From the IMG/VR virus record IMGVR_UViG_2690316166_000013, positions 1-5,551 of that record: a DNA stretch of 5,551 bases, one strand, 5' to 3'. Positions 1 through 5,551 of the stretch are shown here, piece by piece. The notes beneath the pieces were generated by a model that saw nothing but the letters and a program-made list of their open reading frames with translations, ran no database searches and had not been told where the DNA came from. Origin of the DNA: a virus (lineage: Duplodnaviria > Heunggongvirae > Uroviricota > Caudoviricetes). How positions within the stretch are numbered: the stretch's first letter is position 1; every line of letters starts with the position of its first letter. A program made the translations under genes and the position numbers.

Positions 1-3000
1 AAACGTCCGAGACGAACGCCAGGTCTTCTGAAACGGCAGCGGGACAGAGTGCCTCAGCTGCGGCAGGCTCAAAAACAGCGGCTGCGTCGTCTGCCAGCGC
101 CGCGTCAACAAGTGCCGGGCAGGCCTCAGCCAGTGCCACCGCCGCCGGAAAATCGGCAGAAAGCGCCGCATCATCCGCTTCAACAGCCACAACGAAGGCT
201 GGCGAAGCCACTGAGCAGGCCACGGCAGCAGCGAGGTCAGCTTCCGCAGCGAAGACATCCGAAACGAACGCGAAAGCGTCGGAAACCAGCGCAGAATCCT
301 CAAAAACGGCTGCCGCATCGTCCGCCAGTTCGGCGGCGTCATCGGCATCATCGGCGTCTGCTTCAAAAGATGAGGCGACCAGACAGGCGTCAGCAGCGAA
401 GGGCAGCGCCACGACGGCATCCACGAAGGCGACAGAGGCTGCTGGTAGTGCGACGGCAGCAGCTCAGAGCAAAAGTACGGCGGAATCCGCGGCAACGCGC
501 GCCGAGACAGCAGCTAAACGGGCAGAGGATATTGCATCCGCCGTGGCGCTTGAGGATGCAAGTACGACGAAAAAGGGGATAGTACAGCTCAGTAGTGCGA
601 CTAACAGCACTTCCGAGTCACTGGCGGCAACACCAAAAGCCGTTAAGGCCGCGTATGACCTGGCTAACGGGAAATACACCGCACAGGATGCAACGACAGC
701 ACAGAAAGGGATAATCCAGCTAAGCAGCGCGACCAACAGCACGTCTGAAACGCTGGCGGCAACGCCAAAGGCAGTAAAAGCAGCCAATGACAATGCTGAG
801 AAACGTCTGCAGAAAGATCAGAACGGTGCGGATATCCCTGGCAAAGACACCTTTACGAAAAATATTGGTGCCTGCCGTGCCTTCGGTGGGTCAGTAAGCA
901 CAACAACAGGAAACTGGACGACTGCACAGTTTATCGAGTGGCTGGATTCTCAGGGAGCATTTAACCATCCATACTGGATGTGCAAGGGTTCCTGGTCTTA
1001 TGGCAATAATAAAATCATTACTGATACTGGCTGCGGTAATATTCATCTCGCCGGAGCTGTCATTGAAGTAATGGGGATAAAGTCAGCGATGACGATCCGC
1101 ATTACCACTCCGACCACATCCAGCGGTGGCGGAACAACCAACGCCCAGTTTACCTATATTAATCACGGAACAGATTATTCACCTGGCTGGCGAAGGGACT
1201 ATAACTCCAGAAATAAGCCAACGGCATCAGAGATCGGGGCGCTACCGTCAGGTGGAACAGCAGTATCATCAGTTAATCTGGCTTCAAAAGGTCGGGTAGC
1301 CGCGCTGACAGACAATACGCAGGGGGCAGCAGGTCTTGAGTTATACGAGGTGTATAACAACGGATATCCAACAGCGTATGGAAATATCATTCACCTGAAA
1401 GGGATGACAGCCGTTGGCGAAGGTGAGTTACTCATCGGCTGGAGTGGTACAAGCGGTGCTCATGCTCCGGCATTTATTCGTTCACGACGGGATACGACCG
1501 ACGCAAACTGGTCGCCGTGGGCGCAGCTTTACACCTCGGCTCATCCTCCTGCAGAGTTTTATCCAGTCGGTGCACCAATCCCGTGGCCATCAGATACCGT
1601 TCCGTCTGGTTATGCCCTGATGCAGGGGCAGACTTTTGACAAATCTGCTTACCCGAAACTTGCAGCCGCTTATCCGTCAGGCGTGATCCCTGATATGCGT
1701 GGCTGGACGATTAAGGGCAAGCCCGCCAGTGGTCGTGCCGTATTGTCTCAGGAACAGGACGGCATTAAATCGCACACCCACAGCGCCAGCGCATCCAGTA
1801 CGGATTTGGGGACGAAAACCACATCGTCGTTTGATTACGGCACTAAATCCACGAATAACACCGGGGCGCATACGCACAGTCTGAGCGGCTCTACAAGTTC
1901 AGCTGGGGCCCACCAACATAGTCAGACTGGGCCCAGAACGAATAGCGGGAGTCAACCTACTGGAATGTTTCCGGCAGGGAGTACTCAAGTTAGCGGGACT
2001 AATCAGGTTGGTATCAGTGGCTCATTAACCAGTGGCACCTCCCAATGGGTAATCGTTAACGATAACTTGTCGTGCAAAAAACTTTTTGCCACAGACGAAA
2101 TTGTAGCGCGTGGTGGTAATCAGATTCGAATGATAGGTGGGGAGTATGGTGCATTATGGCGTAATGATGGCGCTAAAACTTACCTGCTGCTTACCAATCA
2201 AGGTGATGTTTATGGTGGCTGGAATACATTAAGACCGTTTGCTATTGATAACGCAACCGGCGAACTGGTTATTGGAACCAAACTGTCCGCAAGTCTGAAC
2301 GGTAATGCATTAACAGCAACAAAGCTGCAAACGCCAAGACTGGTTTCTGGTGTTGAGTTTGATGGTTCCAGAGATATTACTTTAACCGCTGCGCATGTTG
2401 CTGCTTTTGCCAGAAGAGCAACGGATACGTATGCCGATGCGGATGGGGGCGTTCCCTGGAATGCCGAATCAGGCGCTTACAATGTCACCCGCTCTGGCTA
2501 CAGCTATATTCTGGTTAACTTCTATACCGGAGTCGGAAGTTGCCGGACCTTGCAGATGAAGGCGCATTACAGAAATGGTGGTCTGTTCTACCGTTCTTCA
2601 AGAGACGGTTATGGTTTTGAGGAAGATTGGGCAGAAGTTTATACCTCGAAAAATCTTCCACCAGAAAGCTACCCAGTCGGCGCACCAATCCCGTGGCCAT
2701 CAGATACCGTTCCGTCTGGTTATGCCCTGATGCAGGGGCAGACTTTTGACAAATCTGCATACCCGAAACTTGCAGCGGCTTATCCGTCAGGCGTTATTCC
2801 TGATATGCGTGGCTGGACGATTAAGGGCAAGCCCGCCAGTGGTCGTGCCGTATTGTCTCAGGAACAGGACGGCATTAAATCGCACACCCACAGCGCCAGC
2901 GCATCCAGTACGGATTTGGGTACGAAAACCACATCGTCGTTTGATTACGGTACTAAATCCACGAATAACACTGGTGCGCATACCCATAGTTTAAGTGGCA

Positions 3001-3359
3001 GCACGAATGCAGCTGGTAATCACAGCCATAGAGATGGCCGTCGATTTAACCCCAGTGTTTTTAAAGATACTTATCAATATGGTTATACAAGCTCAGGTCA
3101 AAATACTTGGGGTGTACAAGGCTCAGTAGGTATGTCTACGGGGTGGTTAGCTAATACCAGTACAGATGGTAATCATAGCCACTCACTGTCCGGCACAGCA
3201 GCATCTGCAGGTGCACACGCACATACTGTCGGTATTGGTGCTCATACGCACTCTGTTGCGATTGGTTCACATGGACACACCATCACCGTTAACGCTGCTG
3301 GTAACGCGGAAAACACCGTCAAAAACATCGCATTTAACTATATTGTGAGGCTTGCATGA
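1..3359 (+). CDS. stf: Side tail fibre protein (lambda Stf-like), 5'-partial; the gene starts upstream of the window
   Basis: Frame beginning at nt 3 is open with no stop to TGA 3357-3359 (translated by hand: [20 protein letters not shown]...). The ORF track starts it at 543 only because no ATG/GTG/TTG occurs earlier in frame. Ala/Ser/Thr/Lys-rich N-terminal region, twin GI(V/I)[11 protein letters not shown](S/T)LAATPKAVK motifs, PIPWPSD...[13 protein letters not shown] module, C-terminal His boxes ([30 protein letters not shown]) and terminal [22 protein letters not shown] match lambda Stf as I recall it. At least 1118 codons in window. Confidence 0.9.
573..836 (+). repeat. Tandem pair of phage-tail-fibre repeat motifs (132-nt period), coding, inside stf
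   Basis: [32 protein letters not shown] (from ~573) and [32 protein letters not shown] (from ~705) lie 44 codons apart; nucleotide copies are diverged but clearly related. Confidence 0.6.
1563..1870 (+). repeat. Intragenic direct repeat, copy A (partner at 2673-2980)
   Basis: Hand alignment of 1573-1860 against 2683-2970 shows 7 mismatches in 288 bp, including a 122-bp perfect block (1689-1810 = 2799-2920). Offset is exactly 1110 bp. Both copies encode the identical peptide [112 protein letters not shown]. Confidence 0.85.
2673..2980 (+). repeat. Intragenic direct repeat, copy B (partner at 1563-1870)
   Basis: Same alignment as copy A; identity decays after ~2970 but the protein stays similar ([20 protein letters not shown] vs [20 protein letters not shown]). 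Confidence 0.85.
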
Positions 3360-4246
3360 TTACGCTCATTCTTTCTGCACCAGTAACAGAAATGGCTGAA
3401 GCATTTAAGCGGGTATTTGCAAACGCAGATAATGTGAATATTGTCGGAAAGCCATTTGAAACAATCAGAGAATTTGACTGCATGGTAAGTGCGGCAAATA
3501 GTTTCGGCCTGATGGATGGCGGCGTTGATGCCGCCATTACCGCATTCTTCGGTACTCAGTTACAGTCCCGCGTTCAGAATCATATTCTTCGTGAATATCT
3601 AGGCGAACAGCCTGTAGGTTCTGCATTTGTAATTGAAACGGGGCATAATCATCACCCCTGGCTGGTACATGCGCCAACAATGCGTGTTCCGCTGACAATT
3701 GACGGAACAGACGCTGTATATAATGCAACCTGGGCCGCTCTGCTTGCCATCTTTCAGCACAATAAAAACGCAACGACAGACAGGAAAATAAAGACGGTGG
3801 TATTCCCTGCAATGGGGGCCGGATGTGGTCAGGTTCCGTTTGAAAGCGTTGCCTGGCAAATGAAGCAGGCATGGGATAACTTTAATAAGAAAACAGAATC
3901 AATTTACTGGGAATACGCACACTCCCGCCAGTCGGCAGTATTTGGCACATATGCATACTGTCCGGGTAATTCTGTTTGCCGTTATGCGGATACTAAATAT
4001 ATTGGATGCGGCGATTATCGGACGTATTGCTCACGTTCCGGGCAGTTCTGTATTAGCCATGTGCATCAGGCTGATGACGTGCTGACTAATAATCGCTCTC
4101 GCCCTGATTCGCATACACACCGGTTTAATCCAGAAAATCCCGTAGGCAATCTCACCTCTGGCGCACATAGCCACGGAAGTAGCATCGTTATTGGTGCTCC
4201 CACCCATACGCTCAATAAACAATATTCTGTCTCTGATATTAAGTAG
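3356..4246 (+). CDS. Macro-domain (ADP-ribose binding / ADP-ribosyl hydrolase-like) protein with Cys-rich, His-box tail-fibre-like C-terminal extension; function unknown
   Basis: 296-codon ORF. ATG 3356 overlaps the stf stop (ATGA, 3356-3359) and has GAGG at 3347-3350. Macro-domain motifs seen in the translation: SAAN (N48, nt 3497-3499), [11 protein letters not shown] (aa 51-61) and [14 protein letters not shown] (aa 148-161), comparable to the NAAN / GGGVDGAI / FPAISTG motifs of YmdB/MacroD. C-terminal aa ~181-296 contain C-x5-C-x9-C-x6-C-x6-C followed by DSHTH...[17 protein letters not shown]. Stop TAG 4244-4246. Confidence 0.7.
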
Positions 4247-4254
4247 AGGTGAAC

Positions 4255-4771
4255 ATGGATTTTAGAATGACTGAACAACCACGGACCATAAAAATTTATA
4301 ATTTGCTGGCCGGAACTAATGAATTTATTGGTGAAGGTGACGCATATATTCCGCCTCATACAGGTCTGCCTGCAAACATCGTGGCATCTCGTTGAAGATC
4401 ATCGGGGTAAAACGGTTTATGACGTGGCTTCCGGCGACGCGTTATTTATTTCTGAACTCGGCTCATTACCGGAAAATGTCACCTGGTTATCCCCGGAAGG
4501 GGAGTTTCAGAAGTGGAACGGCACAGCCTGGGTGAAGGATACGGAAGCAGAAAAACTGTTCCGGATCCGGGAGGCGGAAGAAACAAAAAACAGCCTGATG
4601 CAGGTAGCCAGTGAGCATATAGCGCCGCTTCAGGATGCTGTGGATCTGGAGATCGCAACGGAGAAAGAAACCTTGTTGCTGGAAGCCTGGAAAAAGTATC
4701 GGGTGTTGCTGAACCGTGTTGATACATCAACTGCACCGGATATTGAATGGCCAGTAGCACCTATAGGGTAA
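4255..4771 (+). pseudogene. tfa: Tail fibre assembly protein (lambda Tfa-like), disrupted by a frameshift / internal deletion
   Basis: ATG 4255 with GAGG at 4246-4249. Frame 1 reads [41 protein letters not shown], then IVASR and TGA at 4393-4395. The rest of the Tfa-like sequence ([133 protein letters not shown] 4769-4771) continues in the +1 frame from ~4379. Against lambda Tfa as I recall it, ~22 codons ([22 protein letters not shown]) are missing at the junction, a deletion of 3n+2 nt. Confidence 0.75.
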
Positions 4772-4853
4772 ATTCGTAATGATTACCTAAATACGTTATT
4801 CTTTTGTTAAAAAAGTGATTTTGCTATAGGTAGGGAGTATGTTCTTGGATTAA

Positions 4854-4888
4854 GAATAAAAAATCGCCATGAAAGAGCTTCATGGCGA
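4854..4888 (-). terminator. Rho-independent terminator for a minus-strand transcript
   Basis: Perfect 10-bp stem TCGCCATGAA (4864-4873) / TTCATGGCGA (4879-4888) with 5-nt loop. On the minus strand the hairpin is followed by TTTTTTATT (complement of 4854-4862). There is no T-run after it on the + strand. Confidence 0.45.
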
Positions 4889-5036
4889 GTACATAAACGT
4901 ACAAAATGTGATGAAAGTAGAGTGGCGTAAGCCACTATATTAAGATATGACAATAGCGAAGAAAAGTAAATAACATTTTATGGACGTTTAATTGTTAATT
5001 ATAAAAACTAGAGTGCCCGATATTGTTTATCTTGCT

Positions 5037-5138
5037 TTAAAATAATGTACTCAAACCAAATTTTTGAGCTAAAAGCTCAAATAATATAAATGCAATAATA
5101 ATGTTTAATAAGACAATTAGCTTGCTTTGTATTTTCAT
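5037..5138 (-). CDS. Candidate small hydrophobic protein (33 aa), hypothetical
   Basis: Minus-strand ATG (5138-5136) to TAA (5039-5037) encodes MKIQSKLIVLLNIIIAFILFELLAQKFGLSTLF: basic N-terminus then one predicted transmembrane helix. Possible sigma70 promoter upstream on the minus strand (TTGACT, complement of 5196-5201; 17-bp spacer; TATTGT, complement of 5173-5178) and the terminator at 4854-4888 downstream. No clear Shine-Dalgarno; below the ORF-track size cutoff. Confidence 0.2.
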   Translation of the reverse strand: MKIQSKLIVLLNIIIAFILFELLAQKFGLSTLF

Positions 5139-5520
5139 TTCGGAATACTGTTAAGTAACTTTGATGACCCTAACAATAGATCGGAATTTTCTTAGAGTCA
5201 ATGGTCACTGTTTTTGCTTGCAAAGCAAATGTTTTGGTGGTTATAAGTTGTCTTAATATAGTCACGCATGCAACTTGTTCCATGCGGAGATTAAAGATTG
5301 GAATATAACGCGAAGATGGAATTAAATTACATTTGCAATAATCAATTTATTATTACTCAATAATTACCGATATTATTATTGTAAATTAATCATTAGAGTG
5401 CAAAAAGAAATGTAACGGCAAAATAAGAGGACGATAGCTGAGAAAAAAGCGTGCTTTCCCAATCTGGGGCAAATCACGTCTGAATGACACCTGAAAACAG
5501 GTGGTAGCCTCAAGAAGGCT

Positions 5521-5551
5521 GGTGATGCTGCCAACTTACTGATTTAGTGTA
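5521..5551 (+). mobile_element. IS1 insertion sequence, left terminal inverted repeat (element continues past the window end)
   Basis: GGTGATGCTGCCAACTTACTGATTTAGTGTA matches the first 31 nt of IS1 (IRL GGTGATGCTGCCAACTTACTGAT...) as I recall it. Confidence 0.85.

Follow-up and report, generated by a model that had tools for sequence, protein, structure and literature searches.

What does the AT-rich DNA between a tail fiber assembly gene and an insertion sequence encode in a lambdoid prophage? We address this question for positions 4772–5520 of a 5,551-nt stretch of DNA from a tailed phage of the Caudoviricetes (IMG/VR record IMGVR_UViG_2690316166_000013, positions 1–5,551; hereafter the window, whose numbering is used throughout). 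An earlier reading of this sequence, hereafter the original prediction, proposed that the island carries a compact transcription unit on its minus strand, made of a promoter-like element, a 33-codon open reading frame (ORF) and a strong terminator, and that the encoded peptide is either a membrane-active toxin or a small membrane regulator. We find that the ORF is a genuine coding gene on which purifying selection acts and that, judged by alignment statistics, its product is related to the Escherichia coli stress membrane protein YncL. Promoter, mini-ORF and terminator appear to form one conserved minus-strand unit, as proposed, and this unit is likely a moron of lambdoid prophages.

The island carries a 33-codon gene under purifying selection

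The general features of the island are as originally described. Its GC content is 0.27–0.375 across 4701–5500, compared with 0.40–0.64 upstream in the tail fiber genes (200-nt windows), and neither strand of 4772–5520 holds an ORF of 60 codons or more, the longest being 52 and 48 aa. The left flank is tfa, whose homologues are annotated as "tail fiber assembly protein", and IS1A starts at 5521 on the right. Within these limits, the 33-codon ORF is present on the minus strand at 5037–5138 and encodes a basic-then-hydrophobic peptide with the sequence MKIQSKLIVLLNIIIAFILFELLAQKFGLSTLF.

This ORF is intact and 33 aa long in all 76 loci that have an anchor upstream of the ATG, with 4 peptide variants in total. 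Among these loci, 47 are viral and were picked by the pattern of the 3′ module described below, so no selection for the ORF entered into their choice. Over the 32 distinct sequences, variable sites at third, first and second codon positions number 13/8/2, and indels are present on both flanks of the ORF and none lie inside it. As a reference for divergence comparisons we used a divergent lineage of about 79% identity (L003, with L029). The ORF of the window differs from that of L003/L029 by 18 nucleotides (17.6% divergence) and only 5 amino acids. Specifically, relative to L003 there are 11 synonymous differences over 19.7 synonymous sites and 7 nonsynonymous differences over 79.3 nonsynonymous sites, i.e. 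a dN/dS of 0.09 (Fisher P = 2e-5). Random placement of these substitutions introduces a stop codon in 36% of trials, and a fraction of only 1e-4 yields 5 or fewer amino acid changes with no stop.

As a control, the adjacent 37-aa ORF at 5170–5283 (minus strand) is broken in many copies, by loss of the start, by stops or by frameshifts. This ORF overlaps the promoter of the unit and is listed as a "hypothetical protein" in phage PhiR70_1; we rejected it as a candidate gene, and its annotation in that phage is probably spurious because of these disruptions. The original prediction had left room for the 33-codon ORF being unconserved or devoid of coding signature, which the 76 intact copies and the dN/dS of 0.09 contradict, and for the region being a degraded remnant of the phage b region, which is excluded by the same coding signature.

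The peptide is related to the stress membrane protein YncL

The description of the product as a small hydrophobic membrane peptide is well supported. The 33 residues are predicted to form one helix, with a hydrophobic core at residues 7–25 preceded by K2 and K6, and the Kyte–Doolittle mean over these 19 aa is 2.54, compared with 2.15 in YncL. In NCBIfam, the sole family matched at E ≤ 10 by either of the two peptide variants searched is NF000537, "stress response membrane protein YncL", with scores of 25.0 and 23.5 bits (E = 1.3e-5 and 3.7e-5) and a match covering residues 1–28 of the 30-position model. A comparison with YncL by hhalign gives a probability of 94.2% (E = 1.1e-7) and 38% identity over 29 columns starting from residue 1. 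Aligned from Met1 without gaps, the peptide and the YncL of K-12 (MNVSSRTVVLINFFAAVGLFTLISMRFGWFI) share 11 of 31 positions, including S5, V9, L10, N12, A16, L19, F20, L22, F27, and G28. None of 20000 full shuffles reaches the score of this alignment, and only 1 of 50000 does if shuffling is confined to the N-terminal, hydrophobic, and C-terminal blocks. These statistics indicate that the peptide is a diverged homologue or paralogue of YncL, as distinct from an equivalog.

Other resources contribute little to the identity of the peptide. Pfam, PADLOC, and the sequences of the PDB return no match, and PHROGs returns a single insignificant one, obtained with the L003 variant (E = 0.59). None of the type I toxin families is matched in Pfam, PADLOC, PHROGs, or NCBIfam. 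An exhaustive HMMER search of 1.84 billion representative proteins retrieves nothing beyond the peptide and a 43-aa variant with a frameshift, an exact look-up of the peptide leads to one unnamed cluster of 2 members, and a text search of the literature with the sequences of the peptide and of the 3′ module returns no paper.

YncL is a small inner-membrane protein whose levels rise in minimal medium and after heat shock, and its production leads to sublethal membrane depolarization, nucleoid condensation, and lower viability (PMC12542507). The Salmonella protein is the product of the "sRNA" STnc1110, which is sigma-S-dependent (PMC5437024), and YncL is an in vivo substrate of the intramembrane protease RseP, as are Hok toxins (PMC10470546). 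The "small membrane regulator" named as an alternative in the original prediction fits the product best, because the peptide is by these comparisons a homologue of a small stress membrane protein.

Predicted promoter, leader, and terminator

The proposed sigma-70-type promoter, TTGACT-17-TATTGT, is present at 5201–5173 on the minus strand. It was identified by pattern scan and is conserved in L003, where TTGACT-17-TATCGT stands at the homologous place on the same strand and is the only promoter-like site that the same scan detects in 720 bp. Counted by eye, its core differs from L003 at 3 of 29 positions, compared with 9 of 34 in the leader; leader and promoter together are 19.0% divergent. 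The -10 region reads TCTATTGTTA, which we take to resemble the extended sigma-S -10 (TCTATACTTAA), a likeness to be treated as a lead only.

The segment 5139–5172 provides a short, A/U-rich 5′ leader, with transcription predicted to start at about 5164–5166. The resulting leader of about 28 nt folds weakly (-3.4 kcal/mol) and harbors no hidden Shine–Dalgarno sequence, and an in-frame TAA, read from the sequence, is found 5 codons upstream of the ATG. A leader of this kind, short, weakly folded, and rich in A and U, suggests that initiation would be independent of a Shine–Dalgarno sequence.

At the other end of the unit, the scan and sequence conservation confirm the intrinsic terminator on the minus strand at 4854–4888. 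Its stem (4888–4864) has 11 pairs, of which 5 are G-C, and a loop of 3, and is followed by the T-tract (4863–4854), which reads TTTTTTATTC. Terminator-like sites are more frequent than expected, with 2 found compared with 0.3 ± 0.6 in shuffled sequences. All variants retain the stem, with a G-U to A-U change at the loop-closing pair, and the homologous terminator is found in L003.

Within the unit, conservation is highest at the 3′ end of the predicted RNA

The untranslated region (UTR) of about 150 nt that follows the ORF was held in the original prediction to lower confidence in the unit. The length stands, but the weakening does not: the distal 90 nt or so are the unit's most conserved part. 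This 3′-terminal module (4854–4945, minus strand) is made of the hairpin AGUGGC-UUAC-GCCACU (4921–4936), a U/A-rich 31-nt linker CUACUUUCAUCACAUUUUGUAC (4889–4920) that is nearly invariant, with one polymorphic site over all variants, and the terminator. Its divergence in L003 is 8.7%, the lowest of all segments of the unit, compared with 29.1% in the adjacent, variable proximal 3′ UTR (4946–5036), where 10 positions are gapped as well and indels of 4, 1, and 5 nt are found in L003/L029; the difference between the two is significant (Fisher P = 5e-4). Every copy of the module found in 827 complete E. coli genomes is at least 90% identical.

The module is predicted to fold with a minimum free energy of -27.1 kcal/mol (z = -7.5) into the hairpin, the single-stranded 31-nt linker and the terminator. 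Changes within its stems are one-sided (C-G to U-G, and G-U to A-U in the terminator) and preserve pairing only if the RNA is made from the minus strand, while no double compensatory substitution is present among the variants. At permissive thresholds, Rfam returns no match inside the island. The complementarity of the linker to its own leader and to the chromosomal yncL mRNA is no better than in shuffles, and the pattern scan finds no internal promoter for the module. A 24-aa ORF that covers the module on the plus strand (4869–4943) was also considered and rejected; its few substitutions are mostly nonsynonymous and its start lies inside the terminator stem.

The conservation of the module points to a function at the level of RNA, such as stability, processing into a 3′-UTR-derived small RNA (sRNA), or chaperone binding. 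The last 90 nt or so of the mRNA, more conserved than the coding region, probably have an RNA-level role of their own, e.g. in stability or as a regulatory RNA derived from the 3′ UTR.

Boundaries and distribution of the unit

Only a part of the island, from 4772 to about 5317–5349, is conserved; 5436–5520 belongs to a separate, widely scattered module. Homology among the different contexts stops at about 5317 in copies linked to sit genes and at about 5349 in the others. On the left, the spacer between tfa and the terminator (4772–4853) goes with the tfa allele and not with the unit. It is 32–35% divergent in lineages L049 and L003 (34.6% in L003), and in L049 the remainder of the unit is only about 5% divergent, which argues for a recombination joint at about 4853/4854. 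Together with the homology breakpoints on the right, this joint delimits a conserved unit of about 4854–5317 and makes the island as a whole a mosaic. The upstream part of the conserved module (5202–5317), presumably regulatory, is 8–22% divergent (21.7% in L003).

The unit is frequent in E. coli. The ORF with its promoter (5037–5210) is found in 827 of 5426 complete genomes (about 15%) at 934 places, all of them chromosomal, and the 3′ module is found in 827 complete genomes at 933 places. With equal numbers of genomes and nearly equal numbers of places, the two parts evidently travel together. No feature is annotated beneath the unit by the NCBI pipeline PGAP in the genomes among the matches listed. 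Phages mEp332, PhiR70_1, and ev099 also carry the unit; it occurs in just 4 of 50,697 phage records and in no further phage.

There is one unit per lambdoid prophage, always located after tfa, but the prophages that carry it occupy different chromosomal locations and differ in their right-hand cargo. For example, one prophage adjoins bio and has an AraC-family regulator as cargo (L001), another ends at a truncated ydfJ, the site of Qin in K-12 (L002), and in two others the unit adjoins sitABCD (L003 and L004). The copies in viral and metagenome data are either 100–91% or about 79% identical. Among the species representatives of GTDB, the pattern of the 3′ module has 0 matches, and a degenerate YncL-like codon pattern retrieves only chromosomal yncL, from E. 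coli and two Citrobacter. Relaxed codon patterns retrieve only the known lineages and one ordinary yncL from viral and metagenome contigs. As such, scans of GTDB, viral, and metagenome sequences reveal no relatives beyond about 79% identity or outside E. coli.

Explanations for the unit

We consider it likely that the unit is a self-contained, AT-rich, leftward-transcribed moron, located at about 4854–5317 after tfa, which encodes a membrane-active YncL-like peptide and has a predicted promoter and terminator of its own. Morons are understood here as defined in PMC3594210. Consistent with this status, the unit is an extra segment with joints at about 4853 and about 5317–5349, and its GC content (0.27–0.335) deviates from that of the neighboring phage genes (0.43–0.64). 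As for signals of its own, it has a strong, conserved terminator and a predicted promoter that is kept in L003, with the promoter pattern itself occurring at chance level.

Several observations weigh against this explanation. Promoter-like sites are no more frequent than expected (4 found, compared with 4.0 ± 2.4 in shuffles), so what supports the promoter is its conservation. In E. coli HH45 (L086 1494–1690), both the -35 and the -10 are mutated and the leader has a 5-nt insertion, and yet the ORF is intact, with a single synonymous change; this copy is either silenced or an assembly error. The absence of a Shine–Dalgarno sequence, remarked upon in the original prediction, is borne out, with a free energy of pairing to the anti-Shine–Dalgarno of +0.1 compared with -7.2 kcal/mol for chromosomal yncL. 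The score of about 25 bits falls under the curated equivalog cut-off of NF000537 (35 bits), and in a peptide so short the homology to YncL depends on about 30 columns. The statistics for coding and for conservation are drawn essentially from two deep lineages, about 79% identical, and some shallow ones, and mosaic recombination of the kind seen at 4853/4854 could in principle add to the uneven divergence. The frameshifted 43-aa variant (P0003) is present in public data. Finally, the function we propose is extrapolated from the over-production phenotypes of a paralogue with 35% identity.

The conservation of the 3′ end raises an alternative in which the main product is a regulatory RNA, with 4854–4945 either released from the transcript or serving as an sRNA of the Hfq or ProQ type, and with the ORF secondary or part of a dual-function RNA. 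In L003 the module is indeed the most conserved segment (8.7%, compared with 17.6% in the ORF and 29% in the adjacent UTR), no copy falls under 90% identity in the 827 genomes, and both the architecture, i.e. a hairpin, a single-stranded U/A-rich linker, and a terminator with U-tail (z = -7.5), and the stem changes, which are compatible only with minus-strand RNA, agree with it. This is set against the lack of an Rfam family match, of a compensatory double substitution in the module, and of an internal promoter in the scan, against a linker whose complementarity to its own leader and to yncL mRNA is at chance, and against an ORF that clearly evolves as a protein, which makes an RNA function additional at most. 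We regard a primarily regulatory RNA as unlikely. A second alternative, which treats the small ORF as incidental, is that the island is AT-rich DNA of the H-NS type located upstream of, or at the junction with, downstream cargo (the AraC-family regulator in relatives), or a decayed remnant of the b region. In IS1-free relatives AT-rich DNA does extend for about 1.5 kb to the AraC-family regulator gene, PGAP annotates nothing at the unit in genomes among the matches listed, and the promoter pattern is at chance level. However, the sequence of the unit is kept beside unlike cargo, namely AraC, sitABCD, and the end of a Qin-like prophage at ydfJ, and the ORF has a dN/dS of 0.09 and is undisrupted in 76 loci. 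The adjacent control ORF, in contrast, does decay. We regard this alternative as extremely improbable.

The remaining alternative is a type I toxin–antitoxin system, in which the 33-aa hydrophobic peptide would be a membrane toxin whose mRNA is restrained by a small RNA, encoded either antisense to it or divergently. The peptide is small and basic then hydrophobic, the 3′ UTR is long, and the location is a prophage; moreover, production of its homologue YncL depolarizes the membrane and reduces viability (PMC12542507), and RseP cleaves YncL as it does Hok toxins (PMC10470546). On the other hand, an antisense sRNA on the plus strand, raised in the original prediction, is not apparent: the scan finds no plus-strand terminator-like site in the island, and the plus-strand promoter-like site at 4947–4976 is not re-detected in L003 by the same scan. 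An antisense RNA running from this site to a hairpin at 5216–5229 was rejected for the same reason and because the hairpin is lost in L003, and a hairpin internal to the ORF (5063–5081) is likewise not conserved in L003. A Hok-like fold-back, pairing the 12 nt at 4934–4945 with 5251–5262, is by our estimate expected by chance in AT-rich DNA, and L003 breaks 3 of its 12 pairs with no compensation. The leader, of about 28 nt, is unstructured and has no hidden Shine–Dalgarno sequence, there are no toxin family matches, and chromosomal YncL is not known as the toxin of a toxin–antitoxin system. With no conserved antisense or divergent RNA gene found, this reading is left without its defining second component, and with no antitoxin RNA, structured leader, or toxin-family match it is not supported; we judge it very unlikely.

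Proposed role of the unit as a YncL-like moron

The moron reading suggests the following sequence of events. From the conserved sequence, the sigma-70-type promoter at 5201–5173 is predicted to start an RNA of about 310 nt, which would end at the strong intrinsic terminator at 4888–4854. The 33-aa peptide would be translated from the unstructured, A/U-rich leader with no Shine–Dalgarno sequence and would enter the inner membrane of the lysogen as a single helix. There it may act as YncL does when produced, either mildly dissipating the membrane potential or binding to a partner in the membrane, and the resulting change in the stress, dormancy, or phage-entry physiology of the host would favor the prophage. 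The peptide was possibly repurposed, as HK97 gp15/YebO was.

A bolder version, which we consider quite unlikely, holds that YncL was captured by lambda-like phages for lysogenic conversion and that one RNA of about 310 nt yields two products. One would be the peptide, which would block the DNA of incoming phages or bring about a low-energy, tolerant state, in parallel to HK97 gp15/YebO, and the other an ultra-conserved sRNA derived from the 3′ UTR that regulates host genes. If true, about one-seventh of complete E. coli genomes would contain an unannotated dual-function moron.

The significance of the unit lies in a conserved gene that annotation has missed in at least 827 complete E. coli genomes (934 copies) and in three phages. 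It would connect YncL, a poorly understood stress peptide of the host, with phage biology, and would provide a second case, with HK97 gp15/YebO as the first, in which a phage has taken over a small membrane protein of its host. Because the laboratory strains K-12 MG1655 and E. coli C are listed as hosts of mEp332/PhiR70_1, the functions of the YncL-type peptide and of the 3′ module should be testable by deletion in lysogens.

Neighboring features

Compared with the intact tfa of strain TUM9757 (193 aa), the tfa of the window (4255–4771) has lost 65 bp in a frameshifting deletion, and only a 150-aa ORF is left at 4319–4771; given this frameshift, tfa is probably a pseudogene in this prophage. 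The Rfam family IS009 (RF02111) matches 4533–4731 on the plus strand (218 bits, E = 2e-54), wholly within the tfa coding sequence, and this "sRNA candidate" family thus appears to be tfa coding DNA. A second Rfam match, to isrG at 1–164 on the minus strand, is weak and truncated (21 bits, compared with a gathering score of 100), lies at the GC-rich 5′ end of the window, and is probably due to chance.

At the other end of the island, 5436–5520 (L001 8665–8922; L005 3001–3220) is part of a module of about 300 bp that lies close to the ends of numerous unrelated prophages of E. coli and has partial matches in hundreds more genomes. In IS1-free relatives the module continues into the 3′ part of a serU-like tRNA-Ser (GGTCTCGAAAACCGG...CTCTCTCCGCCA), its homology to the O26 copy ends in the anticodon loop, and ARAGORN detects no whole tRNA there. 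The module looks like an att arm with a tRNA half, left by a serU-integrating phage and embedded in the cargo region of the prophage.

A subset of strains carries an IS1A insertion at 5520/5521 (window 5521–5551; L085 6303–7245). The element of strain 104 is separated by about 220 bp from the gene of an AraC-family regulator downstream of it, and in IS1-free strains the same point is 757 bp away from this gene, which indicates that the insertion was accompanied by a deletion of about 0.5 kb; together they may alter the expression of the regulator. The regulator itself, of about 247 aa, is encoded downstream of the unit (L001 9506–10249, L006 4506–5249, L007 4497–5249). It is part of the cargo of bio-site prophages, mEp332, and PhiR70_1, is followed by insertion sequence remnants, and may be akin to PatE or Psr, prophage-encoded regulators of enterohemorrhagic E. 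coli.

Comparison with known systems

The closest known relative of the prophage gene is yncL (E. coli K-12 b4598; NF000537; Salmonella STnc1110/STM14_1932). The two peptides are similar in length (31 aa in YncL and 33 aa in the prophage), consist of a single hydrophobic helix, and share S5, V9, L10, N12, A16, L19-F20, L22, and (K/R)26-F27-G28 with no gaps. YncL is expressed from a short, sRNA-like monocistronic transcript (PMC5437024), and the same is predicted for the prophage unit. The differences are also clear: identity is only about 35%, and the prophage peptide has 2 additional C-terminal residues and a charged residue (E or K) at position 21. The genes also differ in context, with yncL lying in chromosomal patD-yncL-ortT and the prophage gene after tfa in lambdoid prophages. 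Chromosomal yncL has a Shine–Dalgarno sequence, AAAGGTGG, in contrast to the prophage gene, whose promoter and 3′ UTR are unrelated to those of yncL.

Type I toxins such as Hok, Ldr, TisB, IbsC, ShoB, ZorO, and DinQ are also small hydrophobic peptides that may dissipate the membrane potential and are often borne by mobile elements. Unlike them, the prophage peptide has no sequence similarity to toxins, no structured leader, and no antitoxin RNA that we could find. Hfq sRNAs derived from 3′ UTRs, e.g. CpxQ, SroC, and MicL, present a conserved, terminator-proximal module at the end of an mRNA. The 3′ module of the unit resembles them in its single-stranded U/A-rich stretch near the terminator, and differs in having no match in Rfam.

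Among morons, HK97 gp15 offers the best parallel (Cumby et al. 2012; PMC3594210). It likewise belongs to a lambdoid phage and has its own promoter and terminator, which are predicted in the present case, as well as a deviant GC content. Like the prophage peptide as we envisage it, gp15 is a small inner-membrane protein that diverged from a chromosomal enterobacterial one, in its case the host protein YebO. It differs in family (YebO) and in its position inside the tail operon, the YncL-like gene being located after tfa, and its role in superinfection exclusion was demonstrated by experiment (PMC3594210), whereas the role of the YncL-like unit is a proposed one. Taken together, these comparisons suggest that the unit is not a new kind of system but a prophage-borne form of YncL packaged as a moron, whose mechanism and benefit to the lysogen we infer from its relatives.

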